Part shown: one piece after another, positions 3,629-57,335 of the stretch
How positions within the stretch are numbered: position 1 is the first letter of the stretch
Layout: each line of letters begins with the position of its first letter
DNA from: a virus
Lineage: Duplodnaviria; Caudoviricetes
Length of the DNA stretch: 57,335 nucleotides
Virus record (IMG/VR): IMGVR_UViG_3300037424_000877
Span: 1-57,335 of that record
Strand: one strand, 5' to 3'
Position numbers and translations under genes: made by a program
Notes under the pieces: generated by a model
Told to the model about the DNA's origin: nothing
Seen by the model: only the letters and a program-made list of their open reading frames with translations
Databases searched by the model: none

Positions 3629-3647
3629 TTTTTGCTAGTTTATACAC

Positions 3648-4301: not shown

Positions 4302-4332
4302 GGGCGCCCCCTGGTAACCCCGGGGGGCGTTC
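4302..4332. terminator. GC-rich hairpin between convergent genes
   Basis: GGGCGCCCCC...GGGGGCGTTC. Confidence 0.6.
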
Positions 4333-4702
4333 ACTTCACCAAACGCAGATGGCTGGGCCGCTTCGAGGCGGCCTTTTTCGCAGGCGCGTCTTCTGGAGCA
4401 TCGTCCTTCCAGATCTTGCCCATGCCGTCCTCGGTGACCATAGCGAAGACAGACTCCCAGGGGACGGAGCACGGACTCGGCCTCCCTCCGAAGGACAGCG
4501 TGCAACTGAAACCGTCATCGGTTACGTGGAGATCGTGTATCGGGCGCGCGAGGTTCAGACCTAACTGCAAGCACAGTTTACGGTCATTTTGGAACTGGAG
4601 CGGGACCTGCACGCCCTTGTGGCCGGGCTTCAAATGCACGAACACCGAGTTCGACTGCTGCAACATCCAGCCGATCAGATCTCGCTTCTCGTCGTTTTTC
4701 AC
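4331..4702 (-). CDS. sspB: ClpXP specificity-enhancing adaptor SspB
   Basis: GVQVP...LQLGLN...FSCTLSFGG...VPWESVFAM core; C-terminal RPSHLRLVK resembles the ClpX-binding tail; GTGA overlap. Confidence 0.85.
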   Translation of the reverse strand: MKNDEKRDLIGWMLQQSNSVFVHLKPGHKGVQVPLQFQNDRKLCLQLGLNLARPIHDLHVTDDGFSCTLSFGGRPSPCSVPWESVFAMVTEDGMGKIWKDDAPEDAPAKKAASKRPSHLRLVK

Positions 4703-5262
4703 TTGATCCCAGCTTCTCGACACCTCGACTTGAACACCCTCTCCTGTTCCGAATAGGACAGCTTCAGGATCTGATCGAACGTGCCCTCGCGAGCAGGCGG
4801 CACGGGGTGCTCCCATAGAGATCCGTCTTCGCAGATCAGCCCGTCGTGCTCCCAGTTCGCGTTCGGCCAGAACTGCTTCATCTCGTGGATGAGTAGCTGC
4901 TTGTCTGCGACGTGGATTGCCTCGTCCTTCCCGGGTGTCAGACCGAAGCGTTCGTAGATCACATTCTGGACGGTGTCTTCCAAGATCCTATACTGGTCGC
5001 CCACGAAGCTGTGCTTCAACTCCCGGTGCATGTCTCCCATGAAAGCCTCGGAAGCGTCATGGAGAAGGGCCTTCGGGTCGTTAAGCAGGTCGTAGATGAT
5101 CACACTGTGATATGCGACCGAGTAGTAGAACGGGCAGTGGTTCGTGTACCGAGGTTGCATGAGCCCGGCCGTTACGTCCTCGAGGCAGATGTCCTCGGGA
5201 CGTAAGTTGAGCAGGTTGACGAGCTTTCCTGAACGGAGGATCTTGCGAATTGGTTTGGTCAT
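4699..5262 (-). CDS. HD-domain 5'-deoxynucleotidase (YfdR/YfbR-like)
   Basis: RYTNH...YSVAYHS...ALLHDASEAFMGD...AD motifs. Confidence 0.85.
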   Translation of the reverse strand: MTKPIRKILRSGKLVNLLNLRPEDICLEDVTAGLMQPRYTNHCPFYYSVAYHSVIIYDLLNDPKALLHDASEAFMGDMHRELKHSFVGDQYRILEDTVQNVIYERFGLTPGKDEAIHVADKQLLIHEMKQFWPNANWEHDGLICEDGSLWEHPVPPAREGTFDQILKLSYSEQERVFKSRCREAGIK

Positions 5263-5648
5263 GGTTGCACCTTGATGAACTCCGCGACGACTGCGGCGAC
5301 GGTTTCGCGAACATGTTCCAGCGACTTTGGTTGGTACTTCAGCACATCACATACCCGATCTGCGATCATGGTTGCGATGTCCGCCGGGTCGCCGGTGCTG
5401 TTCGCACTGCGGCCGATCACCGAGAGCGCCGCAGAGTCGCGCAAAATAGCGTCTGTTACGGAGGGTGCCACTCCGTATTTCTTGAACGCGTAGTTCGTGA
5501 CCTTCCCGAACTGTCGGGCCTTGTAGACAGTCAGAGTCACATTCCCGCACCCCGGGCACGAAGCCGAGTAGCACGTCGGGCAGCTCTTGCAGTTCGGATC
5601 GTTCAGGTCAGCAGTTCTTCCAGGTTCGTTTTTCGACATCGTTTTCAT
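5259..5648 (-). CDS. Cys-rich hypothetical protein carrying an in-frame tail-fibre repeat unit
   Basis: CKSC, CPTC, CPGC; contains SVTDAILRDSAALSVIGRSANSTGDPADI. Confidence 0.7.
   Translation of the reverse strand: MKTMSKNEPGRTADLNDPNCKSCPTCYSASCPGCGNVTLTVYKARQFGKVTNYAFKKYGVAPSVTDAILRDSAALSVIGRSANSTGDPADIATMIADRVCDVLKYQPKSLEHVRETVAAVVAEFIKVQP
5376..5463 (-). repeat. ectopic 88-bp copy of tail-fibre gene segment 25204-25291
   Basis: 85/88 identical; 3 mismatches, all synonymous. Confidence 0.95.
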
Positions 5649-12083: not shown

Positions 12084-13772
12084 CTACCCGTCTTTTTTCA
12101 CGCGATCGACGTCTCCCCACGCCGGGCCTTTGCCCCTCTTCTCCGGAGACGTCACGTCACCATAACACAGTTTCTGTGGCAAGCCAGTCGTTTGTTGCAC
12201 GTAGTCCGCCTCAGCACTGGCTTGTCGGAAAGCGTTCAGGTGCTCCAAGCACTGAACTAGGTACTGGACCTCGACCGGTCGAATCTGTCCCGTCCTGTGG
12301 GTCCGGCCGCAAAGCTGCTCCCAGATCTTGCACTTGTTCGGAGGGGTGATGATCAGGTTCCTGTGCCAGAGGTATTGGAGGTTCAGCCCGATCCCGCAGG
12401 CCTTGATCGAGGCAATGACCGTCGATGCTTTGGTGTCTGTGATGTGCTGCCCGGACGGGTCACACCCTCCGTCGCTAAAGTAAGGCCAGCTTGTCTTCTT
12501 TGAGAGCTGTTTCCCAAAGTCGATGTTGTGGACCCAGACGATCCCCGGTCCCTTCCAGGCGGCCACTGCATTCACCGTGTCGTCGCTAAGCCAGTGTGCG
12601 ACACGGTTCGGGGTGAACTCCGGCTCTTTCAACAACCAGTCGTCCCAAGCCTCTGCGTGCAAGGCTCCGGACGCGAAGAAGTCTTTGACCTGTCCCTCGG
12701 AGTCAAACTCCTCGCTCTCTTCGAGGATGGCTCGCACGACCGAGCACCACGCTTTGCGGCTGGCCAACCAGTCTTTCGGCGGCCAAGGGTCGTGCTTCTT
12801 GTAGAAGCCTTGCGCGTACTGGTTCGCCACGGCGAAGATCTGGAACTTGGCGTCACCGAGCGGCCAGTCGTCGGCCGCGAGCCACAGTGTCCGAAGCTTT
12901 TCGAAAGCCTCGTCGGCCTCCTTGGGCGGATCCAAATACCACGGGCTGATAGTGATCGGTGGGAGGTTCGGTTTCTCCGACGAGATAACGACACCCGGCG
13001 TGCTGACCAGGCGTTTCCGAAATTGCTCGCGGGCCTGGTCTTTGGTCCTGCACTTGCCGAGGTCCGAGGTCAGGTGCCGTAGATCGCCGGCGGTGCGCAC
13101 ATCCATCGCCTCTGCCCAGATCTCGATCTCGCTGGTCTCGAGCGGTACCGGGGCTCCGAAGCCGAGCGACCAAACCAGCATGTGAGAGTATTCGTGCAGG
13201 CTCTGATCCGTAGGGCTGCCGGAAAGAGTCAAGACCTTACAGTGCGGGTGCGCTTTGAGATACTTGCGAACACGCTTCGCCCGCGAGGCCTTGTGGATGT
13301 TCTTCACAAGGTGACACTCGTCGAGGATCAGCAAGTCAGGCTGCATTTCTTCGAGGTCGTTCGCGTGGTCGCGATGACTCAGCAGTTCATACCCGATGAG
13401 CGGGAAGTTCTCGGGTATGTCTTTGAAGTGCTTTCGGAGTTTCGTAAGCTCCCTCTCCATGTCGTGGATGACGCTTGAAGGCATCAACCAGATCGGACGC
13501 TTCGCTTCGAGCACGACTGGTGCAAGCGCTGCTACCCACGACTTGCCGTGCCCGACGTTGGCCGCGCAAAACGAGCCCCCGATCGACATCAGCTCGTAAA
13601 GAACGACGCCTTGGATTGCGTTCAGGCGCTCTGTCCCGTTCGAAGTCTTAAGGACGGCCGTCATGGCGCTCGCGCACCAGTCGGCCTTGTCCTTCCAGTC
13701 CCGCGCAGGGAGAGCGGCGATACGGCTCAATGTTTCCTTGTGCAGTTCGTCATCCGTCCTCCAACCACTCAC
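12084..13772 (-). CDS. superfamily 2 (SNF2/DEAH-like) helicase
   Basis: VGHGKS, LDECH, LSGSP, GIGLNLQ, QLCGRTHRTGQ. Confidence 0.9.
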   Translation of the reverse strand: MSGWRTDDELHKETLSRIAALPARDWKDKADWCASAMTAVLKTSNGTERLNAIQGVVLYELMSIGGSFCAANVGHGKSWVAALAPVVLEAKRPIWLMPSSVIHDMERELTKLRKHFKDIPENFPLIGYELLSHRDHANDLEEMQPDLLILDECHLVKNIHKASRAKRVRKYLKAHPHCKVLTLSGSPTDQSLHEYSHMLVWSLGFGAPVPLETSEIEIWAEAMDVRTAGDLRHLTSDLGKCRTKDQAREQFRKRLVSTPGVVISSEKPNLPPITISPWYLDPPKEADEAFEKLRTLWLAADDWPLGDAKFQIFAVANQYAQGFYKKHDPWPPKDWLASRKAWCSVVRAILEESEEFDSEGQVKDFFASGALHAEAWDDWLLKEPEFTPNRVAHWLSDDTVNAVAAWKGPGIVWVHNIDFGKQLSKKTSWPYFSDGGCDPSGQHITDTKASTVIASIKACGIGLNLQYLWHRNLIITPPNKCKIWEQLCGRTHRTGQIRPVEVQYLVQCLEHLNAFRQASAEADYVQQTTGLPQKLCYGDVTSPEKRGKGPAWGDVDRVKKDG

Positions 13773-32740: not shown

Positions 32741-34068
32741 TAGACGGTCACCGTGCCTTCTACCGATTGGACTTGGCCGATTGCACCCTGCAACGTGGCC
32801 GTGAAGTTGATGTTACGCAGGATGCGGTTCGCCTTGTCCACCTGCGGGACCGTGCTGAACTCGGGGACCGTGACCGTGAAGCCGCCGGCTGAACCTGCTG
32901 CGATGATCACACCGAGCGCCGCAGCCTGAGCTAGTGTGCTCTCGACCACCGACTGTACCTGTGCGATCCCGGCCGGTGTGTAGGTGACGATTTCCTGCGT
33001 CGCGAGCAGTGTCAGGATGTTCGCGCGCATGGTGCTCTTCAGCCACTCCATGTTGCGCGTAATGTCCATGAACCGCAGGCTCGTGTTGTAGGGCTCGTGC
33101 GTCCGGTTGAGGCCGCTGAAAATCGCATACGCGATTGCGCCTTTGTTCTCGATGAGACCGAACTCGGTCGCGTTCCAGTTGTCAGGAAGCGCGCCGGGGA
33201 GTTCCTTCAAGTGAGCCCAGCTGGATCCGACCGCCCTGGACAGCTGTCGTCCGAGCAGGGACGCAGCGGCCTGTCCTTTCATGTCCTTGGTGACAAGCAC
33301 CTTCGCGAACTTGTACGCAGCCGCGACGAAGTCAGACGCGACGTCGGACGAGCCCGCTGTGTGGACCTCGCTGTCGGCGGACTGGTGAATGAATTGTCGA
33401 GCGTTCGACTGCGCCCACGCAGCCGCAGCGTTCCCCTCCAGTTCGCCCTGCCCGTCGATGACGAACGCGAACCAGTCAGGGTCGGCCGCAAGAGCTGCGG
33501 CGAGATCGGTTGCGATACCGGCGTCGGCGGACGTGTCTTCGAGGACCAGCGCGCGCGGGACGTTGCGGAAGAATACTCGGCGGACTTCAGGATCCGTACA
33601 AGTGACCGTGATGACGTTGGTCGTGACCGAAGCGTCTACCCCGCCAGCGGCTTCGATCAGCGGCTCGAGTGCTGCGGCAACCGTGCTGGTCGTCGCGCCG
33701 GCCAGTACTGTGTAGACAATAGCCGTGTCGTTGACCAGGAAATCATACTTGTACCCTTCGACCGCGCCCTCTGCGCCGACGGTCAAGGTAATCGTCTGGA
33801 CGTTCTCGAGCGCACGCGGCCAGACTTTCATCAGGCTTACCCGCGGCGACTGAGCGCGCACAGCATCTAGCTTGTAGATGAAGTCGCTAGTCTCGGTGAA
33901 GCCGTCGGCGATCGCCGCAGTACGACCCGCAGCGGAGGTATTGTAAGTCCGCATTCCCGGACCGAGTTCGTGATACGTCACTGCAAGCAGCGTGCCAAAG
34001 TCGTCTCGACTCGCCGTCTGGTCTTGGACCGTGACGTTAACTGTTACAATCTCGGTCGGATCAGCCAT
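32740..34068 (-). CDS. tail sheath protein (DUF3383-like)
   Basis: IV.VNV...FGTLL, GSSWAHLKELPG, FMDITR..EWL, F.ATLQGAI. Confidence 0.88.
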   Translation of the reverse strand: MADPTEIVTVNVTVQDQTASRDDFGTLLAVTYHELGPGMRTYNTSAAGRTAAIADGFTETSDFIYKLDAVRAQSPRVSLMKVWPRALENVQTITLTVGAEGAVEGYKYDFLVNDTAIVYTVLAGATTSTVAAALEPLIEAAGGVDASVTTNVITVTCTDPEVRRVFFRNVPRALVLEDTSADAGIATDLAAALAADPDWFAFVIDGQGELEGNAAAAWAQSNARQFIHQSADSEVHTAGSSDVASDFVAAAYKFAKVLVTKDMKGQAAASLLGRQLSRAVGSSWAHLKELPGALPDNWNATEFGLIENKGAIAYAIFSGLNRTHEPYNTSLRFMDITRNMEWLKSTMRANILTLLATQEIVTYTPAGIAQVQSVVESTLAQAAALGVIIAAGSAGGFTVTVPEFSTVPQVDKANRILRNINFTATLQGAIGQVQSVEGTVTV

Positions 34069-34638
34069 TTATTCAGTGCTCCAAGGCTGGCCTACAGTGT
34101 CCAGCGTAGCGGTGCCTTCGGACGCACCAATGGTATATTGTAGCGGGTTTGGCACGGTTTCTGCAAGGAAAAATTCTGCTCGAAACGGAATGTCAAAAGT
34201 CCAGGTAGAAAGGGTCCGGTTGTCGGGGCCTTTCGACCGGTGAAATTGCAACGGCCCGAGGAAGCTGAGCAGGGTGAGTTCCTGATTCGGGTCTGCTTTC
34301 AGGACGTTGCGGGCTGTCTCGGTGAAAACGGCCAAGCGCAATTTCTGTGCCACGTCGATCGCGGACGGTTCCGAGGTGTGGCTTATCGACTCGACCTGAA
34401 CCTGTAGCTCGAACCGCTCGACCTTCGAATAGCCGACGATGTCTAGGTTCAGCCCGTTCGGAGCCGTCACCGTGCGAGGCGAGCGAAACTCTTCGCGGAC
34501 GTTCATGACCTCGAGCGCGACGACGGGATCTCCGTGCGCGGTCCAGTCTTGGTCCTTGTAGCGGACGAGCTCGATCGGGAAAGTCGGATACGACTTCAAG
34601 ATCGCAGCGTGAACGAATGAGCGGAGGACAGCGAGCAC
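34069..34638 (-). CDS. neck / tail terminator protein
   Basis: position upstream of sheath; size. Confidence 0.6.
   Translation of the reverse strand: MLAVLRSFVHAAILKSYPTFPIELVRYKDQDWTAHGDPVVALEVMNVREEFRSPRTVTAPNGLNLDIVGYSKVERFELQVQVESISHTSEPSAIDVAQKLRLAVFTETARNVLKADPNQELTLLSFLGPLQFHRSKGPDNRTLSTWTFDIPFRAEFFLAETVPNPLQYTIGASEGTATLDTVGQPWSTE
34150..34165 (+). promoter_or_regulatory. sigma54-type -24/-12 box, antisense to virion genes
   Basis: TGGCAC-GGTTT-CTGCA. Confidence 0.4.
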
Positions 34639-34663: not shown

Positions 34664-37219
34664 TCAGAGCCAGCCTTGAGACAATCCCGGGGATCCGGTT
34701 GGGGTGTTGGCCGGCGGGACGAGCCCGAGCCAGCTGTGTGTATTGATTAAACCGGTCCCGTTTAACACGGCTTGGAGCGACAGCTGTGCTTGAACCACGG
34801 CTGTCAGAGCTGCGTCACCGGTGAGGTTGGCTTGGACAGACAGCGAGGCCGCAATCGTTGTGTTTAGCGCACCAGATTGCTGTTCCAGTATTGCGTCAAT
34901 CGTAAGCACGGCCGGTACAGACGCGCTCAGCGCACCGTCCGCCGTCAAGACTCCGGTCGTGGTCTCTACTGCCGCAACCGTCGCCTGCAGCGCACCGTCG
35001 GCCGTCAGGACTCCGGTTGTGGTCTCTGCTGCCGCAACTGTGGCCTGCAATGCACCGTCCGCCGTCAGATTCGCTTGAACAGACAGAGAGGCCGCCACCG
35101 TTGCTGTCAGGTCCTGTTCCAGGAGCCCCGAGACAGTCAGCACCGCCGGTACAGACGCGCTCAGCGCACCGTCCGCCGTCAGGACTCCGGTCGTGGTCTC
35201 CGCTGCCGCAACCGTGGACTGTAGCGCACCGTCCGCCGTCAAGACCGCCGACACAGCTCCGACAGCCGACACCGTGGCTTGCAACGCACCGTTAGCCGTC
35301 AGGACTCCGGTCGTGGTCTCTGCTGCGGCAACCGTGGCCTGCAACGCACCGTCTGCTGTCAAAGTCGCGACTATGCCTAGAGCCGACGAAACAATAGCCG
35401 TCAGGTCCTGTTCCAGCAGCCCCGAGACAGTCAGCACCGCCGGCACGGACGCGCTCAGTGCGCCGTCGGCCGTCAAGGTTCCGGTCGTGGTCTCTGCTGC
35501 GGCAACCGTGGCTTGCAACGTACCGTCGGCCGTCAAGGCTCCGGTCGTGGTCTCCACTGCGGCAACCGTGGCCTGCAACGCACCGTTCGCCGTCAGGACT
35601 CCGGTCGTGGTCTCCACTGCGGCAACCGTGGCCTGCAACGCGCCGTCGGCCGTCAGGACTGCGGTCGTGGTCTCTACTGCCGCAACTGTGGCCTGTAACA
35701 CACCGTTCGCCGTCAGGACTGCGGTCGTGGTCTCCACTGCGGCAACCGTGGCCTGTAACACACCGTTCGCCGTCAGCACTGCGGTCGTGGTCTCTACTGC
35801 CGCAACCGTGGCCTGCAACGCACCGTCAGCCGTCAGGACCGCCGACACAGCTCCGACAGCCGACACCGTAGCCGACATATCGCCTGCGGCAACCGGCGCT
35901 ATCACTAGCGTCGTTAGAGCAACACGCAGTGATGCAGTTATCGTGTGTACGACTGACTGTGCGCCGGTCTGTGTAGTCAACCCCTTTGCCCGGCACTCAA
36001 ACCAGGCGCCACCAGTCGCCATTGAACAGGCGCCACGGGGGACGCCGGTAAACCCTGCAATCGTGTGGCTCACGACGGTCCAAGCAGGGTTGTTGTTATA
36101 GGCGAGACTAAGTATCAGGCAATCTGCTACCGCAACGGGGCTCGCAGTCGCTGAGGTTGCAACCGCTGACGCGGCGTTCGCGACGTCCGACAGATTCGCC
36201 GACTGATCTGCATTCTCGACGCAAATCGCTTGCGTGTACGCCGCCGCACTACCTCCCGCGATGCTGACGACTATGTTGTTGGCTCCGTCCGCCGGCAGAT
36301 CAGCTTCCCTGAGCTCCCACCACACGATCTGCATGATGTTATCGCCAATGACGTCGGCCGTGTCTGTGCCGTCCGTGCATTTGGTCATCGATACGCCGCC
36401 GTACGTGACGGAGCTGAACGTAACGCCGGTAGTGCCCTCGGTCCCGGTGCCAACGAATAAACGGCGATTGCCGGCGGTTCCGGCGTCCAACGTAAACGAG
36501 TTGGTGAATGGCCCAGCCCCGGAAGCGTTCTGGTAGCTTTGTGATCGCAGGATCGGGATCGCGTGCGCCGTTTGCGCAGTGCGCACCGCGACGGTCGCGG
36601 CTGACCATTGCTCTGTTGCGCGAGTTGTGGTGCCGGGATTGTCGGAACCGGCGGTCAGCTCTCGCTCGCTGACCAGCTGTGCACAACGATTTGTGGTCGT
36701 TGCGTCTGTTGTTATCTGGAGCGCTTCGCTCGAATTTACGCCATAGCTTGTCGAGTCCGCCGTAAACGCGACGTTCTCGTCGCCGCCCGCGTGCTCAATC
36801 CACAGCGTGTCCTCTGTCGCCCAGTCCGCTGGGTCCAGATTCGGCGGGTCAGGGTTTGTAGAGTTGCCCGAAGACAGCGCAAACGCAGGCGCAGTGTTGG
36901 GGTCAAACCCTGTGATCCGTACGGTGCGAGCGCACCAGTTTTCGGACGCTCCCGTAATCGAGAGCGTGCCCTCGTTCCCGTTTGCAATTTTGCACAACGC
37001 CCAGATATACGACGCTGCCGTGCCACCAGACACTTGCTGATAGAGTGGCGTCCACCCTATCATCGCGTCGCCATACGTAGGCGCAGCTGAGCCGTCCTTG
37101 GTGAAGAACGCTAACAGTAAGTCGCCAAGTGCTATTGACGCTGGAACGCTAGCAGTGTACGTCGTCGCGTTCGCCGACGCTACGTTCGAGTTACGGGTTG
37201 GGACAGCCGGAAAAGTCAT
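34664..37219 (-). CDS. large fibre/adhesin-like virion protein with ~20-aa tandem repeats
   Basis: two beta-rich N-terminal domains; many ADGALQATVAAxETTTxVLT repeats. Confidence 0.7.
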   Translation of the reverse strand: MTFPAVPTRNSNVASANATTYTASVPASIALGDLLLAFFTKDGSAAPTYGDAMIGWTPLYQQVSGGTAASYIWALCKIANGNEGTLSITGASENWCARTVRITGFDPNTAPAFALSSGNSTNPDPPNLDPADWATEDTLWIEHAGGDENVAFTADSTSYGVNSSEALQITTDATTTNRCAQLVSERELTAGSDNPGTTTRATEQWSAATVAVRTAQTAHAIPILRSQSYQNASGAGPFTNSFTLDAGTAGNRRLFVGTGTEGTTGVTFSSVTYGGVSMTKCTDGTDTADVIGDNIMQIVWWELREADLPADGANNIVVSIAGGSAAAYTQAICVENADQSANLSDVANAASAVATSATASPVAVADCLILSLAYNNNPAWTVVSHTIAGFTGVPRGACSMATGGAWFECRAKGLTTQTGAQSVVHTITASLRVALTTLVIAPVAAGDMSATVSAVGAVSAVLTADGALQATVAAVETTTAVLTANGVLQATVAAVETTTAVLTANGVLQATVAAVETTTAVLTADGALQATVAAVETTTGVLTANGALQATVAAVETTTGALTADGTLQATVAAAETTTGTLTADGALSASVPAVLTVSGLLEQDLTAIVSSALGIVATLTADGALQATVAAAETTTGVLTANGALQATVSAVGAVSAVLTADGALQSTVAAAETTTGVLTADGALSASVPAVLTVSGLLEQDLTATVAASLSVQANLTADGALQATVAAAETTTGVLTADGALQATVAAVETTTGVLTADGALSASVPAVLTIDAILEQQSGALNTTIAASLSVQANLTGDAALTAVVQAQLSLQAVLNGTGLINTHSWLGLVPPANTPTGSPGLSQGWL
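34800..35880. repeat. ~60-bp tandem coding repeats
   Basis: GCCGTCAGGACTCCGGTCGTGGTCTC...GCAACCGTGGCCTGCAACGCACCGT units. Confidence 0.9.
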
Positions 37220-42082: not shown

Positions 42083-43512
42083 TTTTCCTCCTTGATGAAC
42101 ACCGGATCTCTTCCGGCTTGAATGTCAGCTACAATCTCGTCGACTGACGCAACCGTGCTGGACGGGGACGTGAGTTCCGTGCCAGTCGTCTGGACCGGCG
42201 GGGTGTCGCTCATCTCTCCGCCCGCACCGGGGGCAGCACCGGCGGGCGGTTCGGGGGCCGGGGTGACGACGATTCCAAAGCTCTCGTCGGCGACCCGGCG
42301 CTTAACCAGCTCCGGACCTGTGACGCCCAGTGCGTCCAAATAGACCTTGTCGGCCTGAGCGACCAGCAGCCTGATTTGCGCTTCCTCGCGCTCGCTCGGC
42401 TGAAACAGCGGCGGGAACTCGACCTCGATCTCGGACCCGGCGATGAAGCTCAGCACCCGTTCGAGCGCGGGTTGAATCTCGTTCTGTCGGTACGCCTCGA
42501 GCCGGTCGTAGAACTGTGTGCGCGTGCCGTCGCCGGTCGCGTTCATGCCCTCCGCTTCGCGTCCAAAGAGCACACTGAAAGGGATATAGGCCGCGCCCGA
42601 CATGTTCAGGGCGACCTGCTCCAGTGTCTCAGGAAGGTCGTCGAGCGCAACGCGCACCCTCTGGTAGTCCTCTTCAGAATCCGCGTCCAGGAAGATCGTA
42701 CGACCGACCGTCTTGCCCGCAGAGAGCAACTTGAGACGCGCGCGGAGCAGCTCGTCATTCATGCTCCCGAGCGCTTCGACTAGGCCCTTCATCTTGAAGA
42801 CCGGAATGTCGAGCTCTTCGAGCATCCGACTCAGCGCGGTCCAGGCCAGGCAATACCGTCCGATGTCGAGGTAAACGTTCTGGAGCAGGCTGTCCCCCCA
42901 GAAGTTTTCCTTCGCGGCTTTCCGGTCCCCGATAGTCGTCGCCCCTTGGAACCAGATCACGCGCGAGGTGTGGAACTCTTGATTCGATCGCGGGTGCTGT
43001 CCGATAACCTTGATGATCTCAGGCTGCCCGAACGTGGGCAGATTCGCGTCTTTGAACCGGGAGACGATCTGGATCTGCGGCTTCGGGACTACGTCGAGCC
43101 AGGCCACCGTCCCGCGCCCGACGGTCGCCGGTGTGGTTGGGAGTCGGGTCCCAGACCCGCGGAGCCCGACCAGGAGCGCAGCCGTCCCGTAGACGTTGCC
43201 CTCGACAGCAGCCCCCGCGAATAGGCCTTCCTTGCGCGTAGGGTCGGCGTAGTTGAGTCGCTTGAACTCTTTCTGGACTGCGTCCGGGGCTCCGGACCAA
43301 GCGCGTCTCAGGGCCTGCTCCGGGAAGACTTCGCAGATGCGACGGGCCAACCAGTTGTGCGTGTAAAGCTGTTCGCACATCTGATCGGACAGGTCGTATC
43401 CGACAGCGAAACGGATCGCGTCCTCCCGTGAGCCGGGGGCTCCGAGGCCGGACAGTGCGTTGTAAAAGCCGTCAGTTGCGCGGACGATTTGCTGCGTACG
43501 TTTCCACTTCAT
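42079..43512 (-). CDS. portal protein (DUF1073-like)
   Basis: DGFYNALSGLG, LY..NWLARRICE, WGDSLLQ, IPFSVLFG...GMNATG.G....FYD. Confidence 0.9.
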   Translation of the reverse strand: MKWKRTQQIVRATDGFYNALSGLGAPGSREDAIRFAVGYDLSDQMCEQLYTHNWLARRICEVFPEQALRRAWSGAPDAVQKEFKRLNYADPTRKEGLFAGAAVEGNVYGTAALLVGLRGSGTRLPTTPATVGRGTVAWLDVVPKPQIQIVSRFKDANLPTFGQPEIIKVIGQHPRSNQEFHTSRVIWFQGATTIGDRKAAKENFWGDSLLQNVYLDIGRYCLAWTALSRMLEELDIPVFKMKGLVEALGSMNDELLRARLKLLSAGKTVGRTIFLDADSEEDYQRVRVALDDLPETLEQVALNMSGAAYIPFSVLFGREAEGMNATGDGTRTQFYDRLEAYRQNEIQPALERVLSFIAGSEIEVEFPPLFQPSEREEAQIRLLVAQADKVYLDALGVTGPELVKRRVADESFGIVVTPAPEPPAGAAPGAGGEMSDTPPVQTTGTELTSPSSTVASVDEIVADIQAGRDPVFIKEEK

Positions 43513-44213
43513 TGTTCTCTCGCAGCGGCTTTGATTACGTTTTGAGCGTAGGTGTGGGCCGAGAACTTCGTTCCGCCCAGATCATATAATAACATGGACA
43601 GACAATCCACGCGATCGCTAAACGTCGCGTTAGGGAATCCGACGATTTCGCTTAGCCAGTCCTCGGTCCACGGTGCGCCGGCCGGTAGAAGTATTCGTTT
43701 CTGCTCAGTTTTGTCGGACTGGAGCTTGGCCCGGTCCTCCTTGGGGAGTCGGCTGAACGCCTTCATGTCGAAGTCGTCGGGGTCCGGGAAAGGGAAAAGC
43801 CGCTTTGAGAAGGCCGCGATCTCAGGCCGCGTGTCTGCGGCAAAGTCGGCCACGAGCGGGATCCCGTTGGCCTTGTACTCGACGAAGACCTTCCCCGCGT
43901 CGCCCCACTTGATCCCGGTCCCCGGGACCTCGTGCTGCTGGTGGGCCACGATCATGGTCTTCGTCCCGGGGTAATCGAGGGTCCCAACCCACTCGTCCAG
44001 GATGTAGAGGTCGTCCCCGCACGCCGCCCCGAGCAGTCCGGCGATCCGCGACTTGGCCTCGACTGCGTCTCCCTTCGAAGTCAGATCCCAGTACGCACGA
44101 ATGTGAAGCGTCGCTTTAGGAGGGAGCTGGTGCATCGTATACGGGACATAGGCCAGATCCGACTGGTGGCCGAACGACGCGTCCTGCGCACGTTTCCTCC
44201 AAGCGTCAGCCAC
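43509..44213 (-). CDS. terL: terminase large subunit, C-terminal nuclease part
   Basis: YWDL, VEYKANG, E..GFPNA..SDRVD. Confidence 0.8.
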   Translation of the reverse strand: MADAWRKRAQDASFGHQSDLAYVPYTMHQLPPKATLHIRAYWDLTSKGDAVEAKSRIAGLLGAACGDDLYILDEWVGTLDYPGTKTMIVAHQQHEVPGTGIKWGDAGKVFVEYKANGIPLVADFAADTRPEIAAFSKRLFPFPDPDDFDMKAFSRLPKEDRAKLQSDKTEQKRILLPAGAPWTEDWLSEIVGFPNATFSDRVDCLSMLLYDLGGTKFSAHTYAQNVIKAAAREQ

Positions 44214-45162
44214 TTGTTGTCACCCATCGTTTCGAGAACCAGTTACGATCGAAGTACCCGCCGTGCTGCGGGATCGGGTTCTGTTGCAGTTGCGCGGAGG
44301 CCTCCCCTCCTAGGCTGTTCTCGAGTTCTGTCACCGAGGCCTCGGTCCAGCGTTTATCGAGAAGCTCGCCGGGGGCCGTGCGAGGGTCCTTCAGCTTCTT
44401 CGAGAGCGACGATCCCCGATCCCAGTAGATGTGCGGGTCGTAGCGCATCGGCAAACACAAGTGTTCGAACCCGTGGTCAAGAGCCCAGCCGGCCAAATCC
44501 ATCTCGTGCAGGCGCTGCATGACGATGACCCGGCGGAAGAACTCCGGCTCGCCGTTGATGCGCGAGGCCAGCGTCTTCGAGAACCAACGGATAACGAGCT
44601 TCAGGCGGTGCCGGCTCTTAGAGTCCTTGTCCCCGGGCTTGATCGGATCGTCGATGACCTGCGCGTCGGAGCCGTGACCCACGGCCTTACCATCCGGCGT
44701 CGAAGCGAAGCGGCTACCGCCAGCCGTGTTGGCCATGTTGGTGAACGCAACCACCCGCGGCATGCGCACCTCGGGGTAGGCGGCTTCGTGCAGAGGATCG
44801 CTCAGGACCTCATTCATGCGCCGCGCGTCGCGGATACAGATCAGCTTGTCGCCCGAGCCGTACAGCCACGAGAACTTCGGGGTGATCGTCGCCCAGTGCC
44901 AGCTTGGCCACATGACTCCGGTGACAATCGATTTCGAGTTCCTGGGTGGGAGTGTGATCACCAGGTTCAAGACGTCCCCGCGGCTCACGGCTTCAAGGTA
45001 TTCACAGAGGAAATCCACGTGCCAGTTCGAGCGGAACGTCGAGGTCGGATCTGCAATCCGCCACCACTCGGCCGTGTACGCGCGGAGACCTCCACGCTTC
45101 ACATTCTCTCTGACGATCTCGGCTTCGTGATCTAGGACCTCGGGGTCCTCATCCTGCGTCAT
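44206..45162 (-). CDS. terL: terminase large subunit, N-terminal ATPase part
   Basis: NWH, PPRNSKS (Walker A), VIDDP, VMQRLH..DL.G, QLQQNP. Confidence 0.88.
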   Translation of the reverse strand: MTQDEDPEVLDHEAEIVRENVKRGGLRAYTAEWWRIADPTSTFRSNWHVDFLCEYLEAVSRGDVLNLVITLPPRNSKSIVTGVMWPSWHWATITPKFSWLYGSGDKLICIRDARRMNEVLSDPLHEAAYPEVRMPRVVAFTNMANTAGGSRFASTPDGKAVGHGSDAQVIDDPIKPGDKDSKSRHRLKLVIRWFSKTLASRINGEPEFFRRVIVMQRLHEMDLAGWALDHGFEHLCLPMRYDPHIYWDRGSSLSKKLKDPRTAPGELLDKRWTEASVTELENSLGGEASAQLQQNPIPQHGGYFDRNWFSKRWVTTSG

Positions 45163-45445
45163 CGCTCGTCTTCCGTTTATTCCGGTATTCGACAATATCG
45201 ACCGCCGGTATGACAGCAAAAGACACAGGAGTGTGCTCTGTCCCACATGATACTCGGCGGCACGTCCGACAGGTGCCGGATGTCACAGTCCAACCAGCCG
45301 TGGTCCGCGCGACCGAGACTCGAGCATATGACTTATAGGTCGCTTCGGAGGTCGTCTGGTCACCGGCTTCGCCTGGATCTGCGGTGTGCAGCGAGATGCA
45401 GACTAGCCCAGTCGCTATTTCAAATAAGTCGCAATTAACTCGCAT
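45149..45445 (-). CDS. small Cys-rich ORF carrying an in-frame copy of the 37282..37713 core
   Basis: MRVNC...ISLHTADPGEAGDQTTSEATYKSYARVSVARTTAGWTVTSGTC...CRRVSC. Confidence 0.6.
   Translation of the reverse strand: MRVNCDLFEIATGLVCISLHTADPGEAGDQTTSEATYKSYARVSVARTTAGWTVTSGTCRTCRRVSCGTEHTPVSFAVIPAVDIVEYRNKRKTSDDAG
45270..45402 (-). repeat. ectopic 133-bp copy of 37475-37607
   Basis: 118/133 identical by manual alignment; 11 of 15 differences synonymous. Confidence 0.95.
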
Positions 45446-47760: not shown

Positions 47761-48143
47761 ACTCTCTCTGCCTCCTTCGTTCTGCTTGCCCAGATCTTTT
47801 CGAAATCATGTGTGCACTGTCTCTTCGTCCTGAACACTGCACTGAGCGGGTTCTCTCCGCAAGAGATAAGTACCGAGCAGTGTGTAAAAAACCTCCGGGC
47901 TGCGTGTCGCTCGCAGGTCTTGACGAACTTTTCCGCCCCGACTGTGAACCCCGAGACCCACTTCATTCCGGTGTCGAGGTTGCCCGGAGGATCGAACAGG
48001 TTTCGCACGTTCTCGAACTCGGCCCCGAGCCGGATCCGCCGCAGGGTCTCGTCGCCCAGTTCCTGGAACGTGCTGGCCTCAGTGACGCAGCACATGTAGG
48101 TGAGCTCTTCTCCAGAGTCCTTGAAGGGTCGCGTCTGGGTCAT
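47757..48143 (-). CDS. hypothetical protein
   Basis: coupled ORF. Confidence 0.6.
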   Translation of the reverse strand: MTQTRPFKDSGEELTYMCCVTEASTFQELGDETLRRIRLGAEFENVRNLFDPPGNLDTGMKWVSGFTVGAEKFVKTCERHAARRFFTHCSVLISCGENPLSAVFRTKRQCTHDFEKIWASRTKEAERV

Positions 48144-48640
48144 GTCCAGTCTTTCACGGCAGCCATGACCGACATGGACATTCCCCTCATAATCGCCAAG
48201 TCGTCCGGGTGTTGCGTTTCTTCGTACGCCTGCGCCAGCGCTTCCATGACATAGATCGGGATCAGCTCGAATCTAGGTTTCGATGCGTTCTTGCGGTTCA
48301 GCGACGGGTCGACGTCGTCGCGTGTGATATCCGGCTCCAGGCAGACCCCGCAGTTCCAACGGGCGTGCGCGAGGTGCGGCAGCCCGGATTCGGGGTCTGT
48401 CTTCTCGCCGGCCAGTTCCCTGTAGATGTGCCGAAGCGCCGAACCCAGTGCGGCCTTCCTCTGCACACCGGCCCGGAACCCGTCCACGGAATATTTTCGC
48501 GCACCGAAACGAAAGACCTCTGTCTCGATCTCGTTAGCGGTCGGGAACTCGACGGCCGCAGACTTGATGTCGTCGATCGTTCTCGGAGCGAGCAGTTTCT
48601 GTGCAAGTTGTGCGACATTTATCTTACCAGTGCCGCTCAT
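48140..48640 (-). CDS. DUF5664-like (dATP/dGTP diphosphohydrolase-type) protein
   Basis: FGARKY...SALRH...GE.TDPESGLPHLAHA. Confidence 0.8.
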   Translation of the reverse strand: MSGTGKINVAQLAQKLLAPRTIDDIKSAAVEFPTANEIETEVFRFGARKYSVDGFRAGVQRKAALGSALRHIYRELAGEKTDPESGLPHLAHARWNCGVCLEPDITRDDVDPSLNRKNASKPRFELIPIYVMEALAQAYEETQHPDDLAIMRGMSMSVMAAVKDWT

Positions 48641-48837
48641 TTTGACACCTCCACGTCGATCGCTTCCAAAACCTGCACTAGTCGATCGCACTCTGGGGCC
48701 TTGTCAGCAAGCTCCTGTACGAACTCGCGCATCGAGAGCAGCGCGTTTTTCTTCCCGGTGACGTATGCAGCCGTCGTCGCGTTGATCAACGAGTCGTGCG
48801 CAACCGCAACGGCCTCTGCTAGAAGTTGGTTGTTCAT
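48637..48837 (-). CDS. hypothetical protein
   Basis: coupled ORF. Confidence 0.6.
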   Translation of the reverse strand: MNNQLLAEAVAVAHDSLINATTAAYVTGKKNALLSMREFVQELADKAPECDRLVQVLEAIDVEVSK

Positions 48838-53022: not shown

Positions 53023-53229
53023 TCATTTCAGCCGCTCGCAGTCATCGAACTGCCCTGCCCAAATGCGAACTGCGATCTGTGCGTCTTCCAGGCATTCCTC
53101 TACTGATCCCGGATTGTCGGATCGTGCCTCTTCGACGACGATCCTCGAGTAGATCTCCCACTCGAGCCGGAGGCGCCATTGCTCTCTGTCGAGCCCCGGT
53201 GCTGGGTAGACTGCTGGATCGACGGTCAT
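53023..53229 (-). CDS. hypothetical protein
   Basis: coupled ORF. Confidence 0.55.
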   Translation of the reverse strand: MTVDPAVYPAPGLDREQWRLRLEWEIYSRIVVEEARSDNPGSVEECLEDAQIAVRIWAGQFDDCERLK

Positions 53230-53987
53230 GGCGTCACCGCCCTCTTTCTCATGTCCGCCATCGCGTCTTCGTTCGACGCATAGAAGTCAGGCACAGGCAA
53301 ATCAGGATAGGTGCTCGCGTAGATGATTGCCCCTGCGACGTTCCAACCGAACAGCTGTTCAAGAACGCTCCCGGCCTGTCCTGCGAGTGTCACGGCCCAT
53401 CCGGCTCGGCAGTGGGTTGTGGCGCAGGTGTGTACGTCTGCCATGTCGAGATCCCCGCACGTGTCGATCATTTCCAAAATTCTTCGATCGAGCCCAGGCA
53501 GTATCAAGGTGCATGGAAGCGTCGCCCCGGACAGGTTCGCCCCGGACAGGTTCGCCCCGGACAGTTTCGCCCCGGACAGTTTCGCCCCGTAGAGGTTCGC
53601 CCCGGACAGGTTCGCCCCGTAGAGGTTCGCCCCGGACAGGTCCGCCCCGGAGAGGTCCGCCCCGGAGAGGTCCGCCCCGTAGAGGTTCGCCCCGGACAGT
53701 TTCGCCCCGTAGAGGTTCGCCCCGGACAGGTAAGCCCCGGACAGGTAAGCCCCGTAGAGGTTCGCCCCGTAGAGGTCCGCCCCGGAGAGGTCCGCCCCGG
53801 AGAGGTCCGCCCCGGAGAGGTTCGCCCCGGACAGGTCCGCCCCGGACAGTTTCGCCCCGTAGAGGTTCGCCCCGGACAGGTCCGCCCCGGACAGGTCCGC
53901 CCCGGACAGGTCCGCCCTGGACAGTTTCGCCTCGCGGAAATCCCGCTCGCCTTCGCCGTACCGCTCAATTAGTTCTGCGCCGTTCAT
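53226..53987 (-). CDS. pentapeptide-repeat protein with C-terminal CxTTHCRAGW domain
   Basis: GERDF followed by more than 25 A(D/N)L(S/Y)G repeats (15-bp units at about 53521-53935). Confidence 0.9.
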   Translation of the reverse strand: MNGAELIERYGEGERDFREAKLSRADLSGADLSGADLSGANLYGAKLSGADLSGANLSGADLSGADLSGADLYGANLYGAYLSGAYLSGANLYGAKLSGANLYGADLSGADLSGADLSGANLYGANLSGANLYGAKLSGAKLSGANLSGANLSGATLPCTLILPGLDRRILEMIDTCGDLDMADVHTCATTHCRAGWAVTLAGQAGSVLEQLFGWNVAGAIIYASTYPDLPVPDFYASNEDAMADMRKRAVTP

Positions 53988-54115
53988 GGCAGCACCGCCT
54001 GCGCGAGTCGGATCCCGATCGTTGCCGCGAATGTAGTTATGCTCACTGCAGTAAACAGCAACAACGCTATCCAACACAGTGAAGCTCTCAACGACATCAA
54101 TTCTTTTGTTTGCAT
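53984..54115 (-). CDS. 43-aa membrane peptide
   Basis: strong RBS; hydrophobic. Confidence 0.5.
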   Translation of the reverse strand: MQTKELMSLRASLCWIALLLFTAVSITTFAATIGIRLAQAVLP

Positions 54116-54615
54116 TTTTCCTCCTTGAGTTTGGTGCACCGTGTGCGCTTGCAAGTCTCTACCAGGGCCGCGACGTCGATGCAACTGCTTCCTTGATCAA
54201 AATCTAGGATGCCTCCCGATTTCGTGTGATCTGACCCGAAAAGGTGCATAAGCTCATGGACCATTACGTTCTCAGTGTAGTCTTCCTCAATCCAAATGGT
54301 CTTCGTCAGGTCCAGAGAAAGCCCCTCGGTGACCGGCCGCTCCTCTGTGAGCACGATGCAGTTCGGCATTGCCAGTTGTCCGCCGCGCGTGACCAGCTTC
54401 GGCGCGTCACACCAGGCGTAGCGGATACCTACGTGCAGCCCGGTTGCGCGCTCAAGCCTGGCCGCTGCGAGCTCGAATTTCACGACGTCCTCCGGCTCCC
54501 AATAAGAAGGCGACGCATTTAACGTGAAAATAGGCTGTTTATGCGGTGTTTTGGCCGGTTCTGAGCGATTTACACACGAGATCAGGGCTATTATCGTCAA
54601 TAAACGGCGGATCAT
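54097..54615 (-). CDS. Zn-metalloprotease-like lipoprotein, paralog B
   Basis: LIS-C lipobox; RLERATGL; HELMHLFGSDH. Confidence 0.7.
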   Translation of the reverse strand: MIRRLLTIIALISCVNRSEPAKTPHKQPIFTLNASPSYWEPEDVVKFELAAARLERATGLHVGIRYAWCDAPKLVTRGGQLAMPNCIVLTEERPVTEGLSLDLTKTIWIEEDYTENVMVHELMHLFGSDHTKSGGILDFDQGSSCIDVAALVETCKRTRCTKLKEEKCKQKN

Positions 54616-54620
54616 GCCCT

Positions 54621-54649
54621 ATTATGGCAGATTTGTGTGTTTTAGTCCA
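54621..54649 (-). promoter_or_regulatory. sigma70-like promoter (leaderless)
   Basis: TGGACT-17-CATAAT with extended TG, 5 nt before ATG. Confidence 0.55.
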
Positions 54650-54702
54650 ATACTTCCACACTCCGTCCATTCGGTCGGAAGATCCGTGCCAGTTGCCGAC
54701 GA

Positions 54703-54796
54703 GTGTTGCACCGAACGATATCCACGCGGATTTTAGTGTTGCACCGAACACGATATGGCCTGGTTGGGTTGGAACTGTATGTGTTGCACCGAACAC
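54703..54796. repeat. three direct repeats GTGTTGCACCGAAC(AC)
   Basis: at 54703, 54736 and 54781; inverted partial copies at 55195 and 55212. Confidence 0.9.
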
Positions 54797-54864
54797 TGTC
54801 GAGCGCCGGGGAAGTAGGTGTTGGTCCCCCACGCCGCCATTCAGCTCACATCAAAATTCCAGTC

Positions 54865-54912
54865 CCTATGTAATGACCATACGTGACCCTATGTGGCCAT
54901 ACGTGACCATAC
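54865..54912. repeat. 10-bp periodic repeats (GACCATACGT-like); second block at 55299-55333
   Basis: GACCATACGT GACCCTATGT GGCCATACGT GACCATAC. Confidence 0.85.
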
Positions 54913-55595
54913 TGGGCGCCCAGTGGGTGGCACCATACAAGAAGCGTGCCAGTGCGTGCCATGCCGCGTACTCCACTTATCCGATGGGGTATGTGGAGTA
55001 CCCCTCGTGCAAGGACCGTGCCAGCGAGTCCGCACCTACATACGCACACACCCACGCACACCCACTGGGCGCCCAATTGCCGGGTATAAATGTACTCGAT
55101 CGCGACATTCCTGTCATGTAGGAGATGTAGGCAGAGGTAGGTAAGGGTAAGGTGATGTCGACAGCACTGCTACTTATGCCACCTGCACGTGGCGGTGCAA
55201 CACTCATGCCAGTGCAACACTTAATAACCCTGAAAGGGGTGGCTGATCTACGGTGCGATCGAATCGATCTGGCCCTAAGTCCGTCCCGCCCCTTTGAAGG
55301 CTATGACCATACGTTGCCCTATGTGACCATGTGGCAATATGTCGCACTTTGGCACGAATTTTGCCCACAGGGCGTTCGAGGGCAGATCCTAGGTCTCACC
55401 GATCCGACCCGTGTCCGACCCGCGGTGTCACAAGTCGGCAATTCTTTCGGCAGTGATTACCAAAGGTTACGGGAGTTAGATGCTCTTGGACTCTCTTTTC
55501 TATATAAAGGATGAAATGATAGTATGGGTCTATTCTTTTTGCTAATCTTCATCGATTTTCCACGGTATGGGCTCGTGTCCCAAGAAAAACGATCG

Positions 55596-55662
55596 AGCAC
55601 GATTCGTGCTTGGCCGTTGGGCCGTACGGACACCGGACTCACGACCGAGCATGATTCATGCT
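55596..55662. promoter_or_regulatory. two perfect 15-bp palindromes (operator-like)
   Basis: AGCACGA-T-TCGTGCT (55596) and AGCATGA-T-TCATGCT (55648); half-site at 55683. Confidence 0.6.
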
Positions 55663-55736
55663 AGATTCGCGAATGTCCTAAGAGCATGATATTTATTTGA
55701 CTTGACATCACTTGCTGGACGAGGCATACACATTGC

Positions 55737-56078
55737 ATGAACAAACAAGAGACCGCCACACTCGCCCTCCTCGATCAACTTGCCGAAGGCCCTATCAAGG
55801 CCTCCGAAGCCCTACCCCCGCCGTGCTCCGCACAGCTGAGGGGTCTCGTCATGAAGGCCCTAGTACGCTGCGGCGCCGTCCAGCAGCAAGGACGCGACGG
55901 GGATTACCTGGACCAAGGACCAGCCTACAATGACACGATCGACCGACTGACCGAACTAGATACGCCTAACGCAGAGCTGGCCCTACAGACGGACCCGAAG
56001 AGCGCCAGGGTGGCATACCTGAAGGCACACATGGTTTGGGTCAAAGCACAAATCGCTGAACTCGAGGTTGAGCCATGA
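55737..56078 (+). CDS. hypothetical protein, possibly winged-helix DNA-binding
   Basis: LLDQLAEGP...LVRCGAVQ pattern; TTGACA upstream; follows palindromes. Confidence 0.55.
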   Translation: MNKQETATLALLDQLAEGPIKASEALPPPCSAQLRGLVMKALVRCGAVQQQGRDGDYLDQGPAYNDTIDRLTELDTPNAELALQTDPKSARVAYLKAHMVWVKAQIAELEVEP

Positions 56079-56377
56079 AAGGCGCCAAAGCAGGCCTTCG
56101 CGCGCCGTGGATCCGCGGCTCGAACCCTACCAAGAAACAAGCTTCTGATATTGCCGCTAAGGCTGTCTCAGACGCCCGCCCGCCTAAACCGGGGAGTATC
56201 AAATACCTAGAGCAGCGTTTCGACGAAGCCTATAAGATGCTCCAAATGGGCTATCCCGACGAAGAAACCGCCCGGGCAGAACATCAGCGCTGTGTTGACG
56301 CGCTGAACATCGCTCGGGTCAGCCGGTTTAATCTTGCCGCCAAGAATAAGCGCTTGAAGGCTAAGGCCGGATGGTAG
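56075..56377 (+). CDS. basic hypothetical protein
   Basis: ATGA overlap. Confidence 0.6.
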   Translation: MKGAKAGLRAPWIRGSNPTKKQASDIAAKAVSDARPPKPGSIKYLEQRFDEAYKMLQMGYPDEETARAEHQRCVDALNIARVSRFNLAAKNKRLKAKAGW

Positions 56378-56603
56378 GACGCTCCCCGTCCGATCCGACG
56401 AGCGACGCTCCCACGCGACCCCGCAACGCGGGGTCTAGTGCGAGTTCGACCGCCAACTGCTCCCCGAGCGCCACCAGTTGCCCTACAGTGAGCTTGTGTG
56501 CGTCAGGGGTCACCATGAGTGCCAGGCCGACCAGGGACGCTTCGAGGCGCCGTGAGCGCTCGGCAATCGCGGTCAGCGCCCGGATGGCGCCATGGGCGCT
56601 CAC
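56361..56603 (-). CDS. hypothetical protein
   Basis: GTGA overlap with upstream gene. Confidence 0.55.
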   Translation of the reverse strand: MSAHGAIRALTAIAERSRRLEASLVGLALMVTPDAHKLTVGQLVALGEQLAVELALDPALRGRVGASLVGSDGERPTIRP

Positions 56604-57136
56604 CTCGACACCTGGTGAACAGCAGCCAAACTGAACAAGGAATCAGCGTGGGACGCGAGAATAGGCGCCTCGTGTGCGAGCGACGGTAGCAAATCTCGCC
56701 AATCAGCGACACTGTGTGTGTGACATCCGATTGTGACTACATCGTCGCAGATCGTGACGTGAAACTCGCCTAGTCCGGTCAGATAGATCGGTGATCGCGA
56801 GGCACTGCCGCACACTAGGGCATCGCCGTACACCAGGGCATCGCCGTACACCAGGGCACGGTCGCACACCAGGGCATGGCCGTACACCTGGGCATGGCCG
56901 TACACCAGGGCACGGTCGCACACCCGGGCACGGTCGCACACCAGGGCATGGTCGCACACCAGGGCATGGCCGTACACCCGGGCACGGTCGCACACCAGGG
57001 CATGGCCGTACACCCGGGCATCCGGACCGACATATGCGCTGTCGTCCACGTGAGCAGTGTCGGCTACCCATCCACTACCATTTATGTGCCTGTGAGCAGC
57101 GACCGGACCACACCCAAAATCAAATTGCGTTGTCAT
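56600..57136 (-). CDS. left-handed beta-helix (hexapeptide repeat) protein
   Basis: AHRH.NG.GWVADTA then AxVxG/D hexapeptides (18-bp repeats) and IGC. Confidence 0.8.
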   Translation of the reverse strand: MTTQFDFGCGPVAAHRHINGSGWVADTAHVDDSAYVGPDARVYGHALVCDRARVYGHALVCDHALVCDRARVCDRALVYGHAQVYGHALVCDRALVYGDALVYGDALVCGSASRSPIYLTGLGEFHVTICDDVVTIGCHTHSVADWRDLLPSLAHEAPILASHADSLFSLAAVHQVSR

Positions 57137-57244
57137 TTCAATTCCTTCCGTTGTCATTTCAAAAGATCTGCGTAACCATCTACGCAACGTGGGGCGTGTT
57201 GCTCCGGATCGGTGTGTTACAGATTGCGTGAAGGGACCAGAAGC

Positions 57245-57335
57245 CGGCGAGCTGTCTTGATTGCGCCAGATCGATAGCCAGCGTTGTAGTCGCGGCAAGC
57301 CTCGCGGAACGCTGGCCCGCGGCTCTCGCACTGAC
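57245..57335. repeat. 91-bp exact direct repeat, copy 2 (copy 1 at 168-258)
   Basis: identical to 168-258. Confidence 0.95.

Follow-up and report, generated by a model that had tools for sequence, protein, structure and literature searches.

A cluster of sigma-54-like boxes in the largest non-coding gap of a contractile-tail phage

The gap and its boxes

The window, by which we mean the whole stretch of 57,335 bp that was analysed, is an entire IMG/VR virus record with a CheckV completeness of 100%. Its gene content is that of a contractile-tail phage (sheath, baseplate, portal, terminase) that encodes replication genes of its own, namely a family A DNA polymerase, a primase-helicase, an SNF2 helicase and an exonuclease. 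Nearly all of its genes are carried on the minus strand, and the closest cultured phages share at most 30% identity with it in the portal protein. The largest non-coding gap of the genome, 1,121 bp at 54616-55736, lies between diverging genes (Table 1), and none of the eight ORFs within it matched a PHROG family (E<=0.1). The 113-aa neighbour protein is an orphan, for which a single-sequence fold reached a pLDDT of 55 and was unusable. The last 91 bp of the record (57245-57335) are identical to positions 168-258 and stand in the same frame in two minus-strand ORFs. This terminal repeat probably reflects circular closure or an assembly break at the repeat, in which case the first 167 bp of the record may be an alternative branch. 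The gap probably heads both transcription directions of the phage.

Other parts of the genome yielded observations in their own right. Two overlapping ORFs (44206-45246 and 43509-44213) together make up the terminase large subunit, a split that could stem from a frameshift, from a sequencing error or from an intron-like interruption. Accessory genes encode a dATP/dGTP diphosphohydrolase N-terminal domain protein (48140-48691), which could hint at modified bases, an SspB-like adaptor (4331-4816), a pentapeptide-repeat protein (53226-54077) and a YdcK-type beta-solenoid protein (56600-57331). An 851-aa ORF at 34664-37219 without a family match contains about nine copies of a repeat with a 60-bp period (e.g. 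at 35482, 35542 and 35602). A second diverging regulatory gap, at 3430-3650, holds two copies of a ~25-bp unit and two of a ~30-bp unit, and is flanked by two small plus-strand genes (3648-3839 and 4032-4298) with signal or lipoprotein-like starts.

A cluster of five sigma-54 -24/-12 boxes had been predicted in the non-coding region of ~1.1 kb, and all five are present, in position as well as in strand. Four face leftward and one rightward, each co-directional with the next downstream gene. They are spaced 72-260 bp apart and imply leaders of about 50 to 570 nt; those of the three upstream leftward boxes would measure ~310-570 nt and that of box 5, with an inferred start at ~55376, ~360 nt. 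GG at -24, GC at -12 and the N5 spacer are combined in three of the five (55008, 55196 and 55350), and the GC of the -12 element is absent from the boxes at 54936 (TTGT) and 54676 (TTCC). A pyrimidine precedes every box of the cluster and an A follows three of them, in keeping with the extended sigma-54 consensus that is said to go back to Barrios et al. in 1999. The additional TGGCAY half-sites of the original prediction are likewise in place, at 54928(+), 54956-54961(-) and 55176-55181(-); the second of these, a TGGCAC, is found 10 bp upstream of box 3, and the inverted TGGCAC at 54928-54933(+) forms an inverted pair with that at 54946.

Table 1 Coordinates of the boxes, flanking genes and repeats, and of arrays in other viruses
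Feature	Position	Strand	Remarks
Box 1 CTGGCATGAGTGTTGCA	55196..55211	-	TGGCAT variant; -12 element belongs to GTGTTGCAC repeat
Box 2 CTGGCACGGTCCTTGCA	55008..55023	-	exact -24/-12 match including flanking Y and W; inferred start ~54997
Box 3 CTGGCACGCTTCTTGTA	54936..54951	-	degenerate -12 element (TTGT)
Box 4 CTGGCACGGATCTTCCG	54676..54691	-	degenerate -12 element (TTCC); 62 bp upstream of ATG at 54615
Box 5 TTGGCACGAATTTTGCC	55350..55365	+	exact match; sole rightward box; faces 55737 operon
Second small box group, exact	33983-33997 and 34338-34352	-	around tail-sheath gene start (34068)
Second small box group, one mismatch	34150	+	around tail-sheath gene start (34068)
First leftward gene	54097..54615	-	172 aa; lipoprotein-like signal (by eye); weak metallopeptidase matches
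Sigma-70-like hexamer pair TGGACT-17-CATAAT	directly upstream of 54615 gene		leftward gene
Pair of small rightward orphan genes	55737..56377	+	113 and 100 aa
Three direct GTGTTGCACCGAAC repeats	54703, 54736, 54781 (span 54703..54796)	+	just upstream of box 4
10-bp-phased repeat run (ATGACCATAC / GTGACCCTAT type)	54873..54920	+	
Palindrome ACTGGGCGCCCAGT	54911..54929		one arm of 17-nt inverted repeat
Hairpin, 15-nt arms	54968..55001		between boxes 2 and 3
Other arm of 17-nt inverted repeat	55059..55075		arm pair flanks boxes 2 and 3
Two inverted GTGTTGCAC copies	55193..55221	-	17 bp apart; between leftward and rightward boxes
Second 10-bp-phased repeat run	55303..55342	+	directly upstream of box 5
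A+T-rich dip	55480..55569		GC 0.32-0.35 vs genome ~0.59
Example arrays in other viruses	L126:1964-2251; L119:418-925; L061:1421-2626; L065:5661-6444		
Terminal-repeat boxes, astrithr-like phages	L055:1-330 and reverse-complement end; G437:71-143 and 12920-12992		

The nearest gene had been predicted to possess a sigma-70-like promoter of its own, and the corresponding hexamers are found directly upstream of 54615. By eye, such a hexamer pair also directly precedes 55737, and a leftward pair (55545-55516) is situated inside the A+T-rich dip. In the second small box group, the exact boxes at 33983 and 34338 sit on the coding strand and the box at 34150 on the opposite strand. The proposed link between the cluster and boxes at 41251 and 34150 found no support: both carry one mismatch and both lie on the strand opposite to the genes, and by eye the coding strand has a TTGCAA-17-TAGACT hexamer pair that coincides in part with the box at 41251.

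The boxes share the gap with several other repeat families. The GTGTTGCAC(CGAAC) family is represented by three direct and two inverted copies, and the GTGTTGCACCGAAC repeats are candidate enhancer, operator or iteron sites. Within the second 10-bp-phased region, a stretch of 22 bp (55299-55320) matches the second small regulatory gap (3440-3461) at 95%. The A+T-rich dip is 260-780 bp away from the repeats, with no initiator gene adjacent. The IHF consensus was not found, and the candidate upstream repeats resemble no known enhancer. Two putative leaders folded no better than their shuffles (z = -1.5 and -0.7) and an Rfam search of the phage returned tRNA only, which marks the gap repeats, as far as such predictions reach, as DNA-level signals in a control hub.

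Enrichment of the boxes and arrays in other viruses

We searched for TGGCAC-N5-TTGC with at most one mismatch. The whole window holds 10 matches against an expected 3.89 (sd 1.85), a count reached in none of 100 shuffles, and five of the 10 fall in the gap, for which dinucleotide shuffles gave a mean of 0.109 with none of 1000 reaching five. The array therefore passes the comparison with shuffled sequence that the original prediction had proposed, standing well above background. Exact matches in the gap number two, against a shuffle mean of 0.003, and none of the 1000 shuffles contained as many. When the spacer was varied from 0 to 11, N5 alone was enriched (10 matches in total, five in the gap, four exact); every other spacer gave 2-8 matches in total, 0-1 in the gap and no exact match. 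Letter-permuted patterns formed a cluster of at least five in 4 of 400 cases and gave at least four exact matches in 1 of 400, and the reversed pattern had six matches in the window, with a largest cluster of two. Throughout the window, TTGC follows at N5 after 5 of 37 TGGCAY sites. That the cluster arose by chance, or by neutral duplication of a short functionless unit, is hardly credible. The gap is repeat-rich and a scan of very many windows must yield some clusters by luck, but the observed count was absent from 1000 shuffles, the effect is specific to one spacer, and just four of the 400 permuted patterns cluster equally. On every count to which sequence can speak, the boxes are genuine, depart from chance and resemble sigma-54 sites.

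The IMG/VR collection was then scanned for pairs of canonical boxes (TGGCACG-N4-TTGC) at a distance of 30-60 bp. Such a pair occurred in at least 120 viral stretches, compared with 0 for the reversed control and three for a control with the spacer lengthened by one. From these matches 80 loci were listed (L047-L126), which fall into 44 nucleotide-level lineages with a GC content of 0.36-0.68. Among the 44 lineages listed, 19 have at least five boxes within 1.2 kb, the maximum being 21. At the positions left free by the search, a pyrimidine precedes TGGCAC with a frequency of 0.82 and W follows TTGC with a frequency of 0.84 (186 boxes among the matches listed, weighted by lineage). Fourteen records that are at least 90% complete, selected for at least two boxes, contain 76 exact boxes against two for the reversed control. 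The exact spacing, the fitting flanks, the arrays in the 44 lineages listed and the clean controls support the assignment of the boxes to the sigma-54 type. The flank pattern of the survey argues for one conserved host factor and not for many lineage-specific proteins.

The layouts of these arrays vary. Some are same-strand arrays with a spacing of 53-60 bp and unrelated spacers (L061, L125), others are tandem arrays with a period of 26 bp (10 boxes in L126, six in L069), and others contain face-to-face pairs (L119, L058, L050); mixed-strand arrays make up 22 of the 44 among the matches listed. One genome (G442) has several separate clusters, comparable to the second group of the window at 33983-34352. 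By a crude ORF-based orientation test, 22 same-strand arrays were divided into nine co-directional with the neighbouring ORF, 10 opposite and three without an ORF. A mixed-strand or face-to-face array is not a promoter layout, and where boxes face each other or recur every 26 bp, not all of them can be productive as promoters. Searches for relatives of array-bearing loci found no match for L058, L125 and L119, and distant genes only for L077 and L126.

The largest lineage listed (19 loci) consists of astrithr-like podoviruses of ~11 kb, which have three inward-facing boxes, 58 bp apart, in each inverted terminal repeat. The sequence at the ends of these contigs is, we presume, sequencing adapter, and the contig ends would therefore be real termini. 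The cultured phages astrithr and Phanie lack boxes; the left end of cultured astrithr has sigma-70-like hexamers, and none were found in the first 600 bp of L055. On this sequence comparison, the astrithr-like boxes look like a promoter replacement. As a separate observation, two copies of TGTTTCACGTGGAACA, which we take to be close to the chromosomal parS consensus, stand beside the terminal-repeat boxes, so that two kinds of host-factor site would be combined in one terminal repeat.

These terminal boxes bear on whether the arrays are packaging or genome-terminus elements, that is, a pac/cos region or a feature of terminal repeats. Besides the terminal-repeat boxes of the ~11-kb phages, 11 of the 44 lineages listed (nine of one BLAST family plus L057 and L069) encode a terminase large-subunit domain no more than 3 kb from the array, an association that may be fortuitous, and the array of the window lies ~2 kb from the contig end. 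However, the terminase genes of the window (43509-45246) are ~9.4 kb away and thus not adjacent to the boxes as a pac/cos site would be, its contig end is accounted for by the 91-bp repeat, and arrays are often internal in complete records. We therefore regard such a role as highly unlikely, and the packaging scaffold of the original prediction finds no direct support here. A supposed position of arrays near contig ends was dropped as a candidate feature, since record coordinates place many arrays internally.

The boxes could instead be sites of a phage-encoded or other DNA-binding protein in a replication origin or regulatory hub, their likeness to sigma-54 sites being coincidental. Several properties of the gap would suit this explanation: it is packed with other repeat families, TKGCAC hexamers are ~10-fold enriched (12 of 63 within 2% of the genome), the TGGCAC inverted pair and the A+T-rich dip are found within it, its 22-bp stretch recurs in the second regulatory gap, and the adjacent small genes are orphans. 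Nevertheless, N5 alone among the spacers is enriched and the flanks fit sigma-54; and since the identical bipartite motif occurs in 44 unrelated lineages listed, over the whole GC range given above, many different phage proteins are a poor explanation. An origin is further disfavoured by the lack of an initiator gene nearby, the primase-helicase being encoded at 5608-7908. Overall we consider this explanation unlikely.

Activator, relatives and candidate host

Sigma-54 promoters fire only with an ATP-driven activator. The original prediction had recognised no enhancer-binding ATPase in the genome, and we reached the same result: PF00158 was detected neither in 65+20 ORFs nor in a six-frame search, and no GAFTGA-type motif was found in the phage. 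The sigma-54 DNA-binding domain was also absent from the phage ORFs and the six-frame search. Among the matches listed, none of the 44 array-bearing viral records has a bEBP domain.

The absence of activator genes would suit a binding-only array, in which sigma-54 or its holoenzyme binds without transcribing, so that the boxes act as a sponge titrating the scarce sigma factor during replication, as poised closed complexes or as roadblocks. According to passages of PMC4591121, sigma-54 holoenzyme that is bound at promoters is inactive. The two degenerate -12 elements and the extra half-sites of the window point in the same direction, as do the 26-bp-period arrays of 6-10 boxes and the face-to-face pairs of other phages. 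Against this, the window has just five sites, widely spaced and all co-directional with downstream genes, and the astrithr-like case resembles promoter replacement. We judge a binding-only array to be improbable for the window; dense face-to-face arrays in other phages keep a decoy function open. The original prediction is thus partly supported. It named the motif correctly; its sponge or decoy, its copy-number sensor and its origin or packaging scaffold are without direct support in the window, where the sites are few, far apart and oriented like promoters.

No close relatives that retain the gap were found. Searches of viral contigs with the flanking proteins gave no relative for one and one weak relative for the other, and the portal had no match there. 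The exonuclease retrieved six viral and eight metagenome loci, none of them syntenic near the gap. In a blastn search with 54000-57335, matches were limited to coding repeats at 56.8-57.0 kb, and a scan for paired GTGTTGCACCG repeats matched nothing beyond a repeat in coding sequence, in an AT-rich phage that is unrelated. In five distant relatives, boxes were no commoner record-wide than the reversed control. The phage itself was found in two sediment DNA runs, whose pieces are identical to it and show no variation across the gap, and in 0 RNA runs.

The best genomic homologues of the exonuclease come from Labilithrix luteola (59%), a Labilithrix MAG (57%) and a Polyangiaceae MAG (50%). The locus in the Labilithrix MAG (L029) is a five-gene cluster comprising the exonuclease, SNF2, a dNMP phosphatase, a dGTP diphosphohydrolase-like gene and a polymerase. 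Structural genes are not shared with Labilithrix, the portal being absent from both Labilithrix genomes; of 401 Myxococcota genomes, 10 had portal matches, with identities that did not exceed 32% and were no better than those in other phages. With replication-gene homologues in Labilithrix and the structural genes unshared, these comparisons are a weak hint that the lineage has its host among the Myxococcota. A search with the SspB-like protein (Atlas) gave no host pointer. Each of the two Labilithrix genomes has one rpoN, and the bEBP ATPase domain has 99 matches in one and 73 in the other. Sigma-54 is not universal: of 14 control genomes, four had PF04552 above the cut-off. The Labilithrix element has no box cluster.

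A side observation concerns the Labilithrix luteola chromosome record (L037-L040, G006:C1:1-70000), whose first 15,059 bp recur at 53796-68855 with 99.99% identity. The resulting unit of 53.8 kb contains phage-like helicase, polymerase and exonuclease genes, and could be either a tandem prophage or an element of phage or plasmid type that was fused to the chromosome during assembly.

Possible roles and comparison with known systems

Our best explanation, to which we give somewhat less than an even chance, is that the boxes are real sites of host sigma-54 holoenzyme that act as enhancer-dependent promoters. Host holoenzyme would recognise the boxes in the main control region of the phage, four of which would fire leftward, towards the 54615 gene and the extended series of leftward genes that follows, and one rightward, towards the 55737 operon. 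In favour of this explanation are the N5-specific clustering, the orientation and flanks of the boxes, the arrays of the survey and the astrithr-like case, with YuA as a precedent and the Labilithrix genomes as a host hint. As the phage carries no activator, open-complex formation would rely on a host enhancer-binding ATPase, and phage transcription would thereby follow the host's condition. The GTGTTGCACCGAAC copies and ACTGGGCGCCCAGT palindromes would be candidate enhancer or operator sites. Counting against a promoter reading are the two degenerate -12 elements and the one that is borrowed from the GTGTTGCAC repeat, the long leaders of the three upstream leftward boxes, the sigma-70-like hexamers in front of 54615 and 55737, the negative searches for a phage bEBP and for IHF sites, the lack of enrichment in the five distant relatives and in the Labilithrix element, and, in the survey, the mixed-strand layouts and the outcome of the orientation test. 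Observed directly are the motif with its spacing, clustering and orientation, the lack of a bEBP gene in the phage, and similar arrays in other phages; we infer that sigma-54 binds the boxes, that transcription starts at them and that a host activator takes part.

We give even odds to the idea that the cluster belongs to a class of DNA element that is widespread in phages. Such elements would be arrays of canonical sigma-54 sites, from two to more than 20 in the 44 lineages listed, used either to run transcription through the enhancer-dependent polymerase of the host, so that infection would become conditional on host signalling, or to soak up sigma-54. In the literature searched, no description of sigma-54 site arrays in phage genomes was found. 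The survey suggests that the use of sigma-54 sites is common among uncultured phages and takes the form of tandem, face-to-face and terminal-repeat arrays. If the promoter explanation is true, the control region is built from sigma-54 promoters and a host signalling pathway decides when transcription starts; alternatively, the phage would capture a scarce sigma factor and disarm sigma-54-dependent responses of the host. This would open the testable question of the means by which phages sense or suppress the physiology of their hosts. Host prediction would be affected as well, since arrays are expected to be absent where the host has no rpoN.

The closest known case of sigma-54 use by a phage is YuA. 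In passages of two papers YuA is described as dependent on host sigma-54, and one of these passages calls the use of sigma-54 by phages rare, with YuA as the single case cited. Three active promoter fragments in its structural module are annotated '-24/-12 consensus' in the YuA record. YuA, which is of lytic type and ~58 kb long, resembles the phage of the window in that it encodes a family A DNA polymerase itself and has no annotated activator, and some of its fragments lie inside structural genes, as do the window's boxes at 33983 and 34338. In contrast to the control-region cluster of the window, however, its three fragments are dispersed in the late module, and TGGCAC-N5-TTGC with at most one mismatch has 0 matches in its 58.7 kb against 10 in the window, which makes YuA a weak precedent at the level of sequence. 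The '-24/-12' promoters of YuA were reportedly described by Ceyssens et al. in 2008. Because rpoN mutants of P. aeruginosa also lack pili, the reported dependence of YuA on sigma-54 may be indirect.

The gap's direct and 10-bp-phased repeats beside diverging promoters are reminiscent of iteron origins and of helix-phased regulator arrays such as that of 186 Apl, as passages of PMC7498355 portray it, but this likeness covers the other repeat families of the gap and not the bipartite, N5-spaced boxes. The boxes have the same bipartite motif as chromosomal and intragenic sigma-54 sites in E. coli, to which, according to passages of PMC4591121, holoenzyme binds without transcribing and of which intragenic examples are common. 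Chromosomal sigma-54 sites differ in being single and paired each with a dedicated activator. To our knowledge, no chromosomal array of 5-21 sigma-54 sites has been described.

Tandem early promoters at the entering end of the genome are familiar from lytic phages, in the form of T7 A1-A3 and of the inward-facing terminal promoters of the phi29 type. The phage of the window shares with these systems the stacking of several promoters, here putative, at the head of transcription units, and the astrithr-like phages resemble the phi29 type in that boxes occupy terminal repeats where the left end of astrithr has sigma-70-like hexamers. The promoters of T7 and of the phi29 type are, by contrast, of the sigma-70 type and have no need for an ATPase activator. 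The use of sigma-54 in the manner of YuA is already known; the clustering of sigma-54 sites into arrays in phages is little described.
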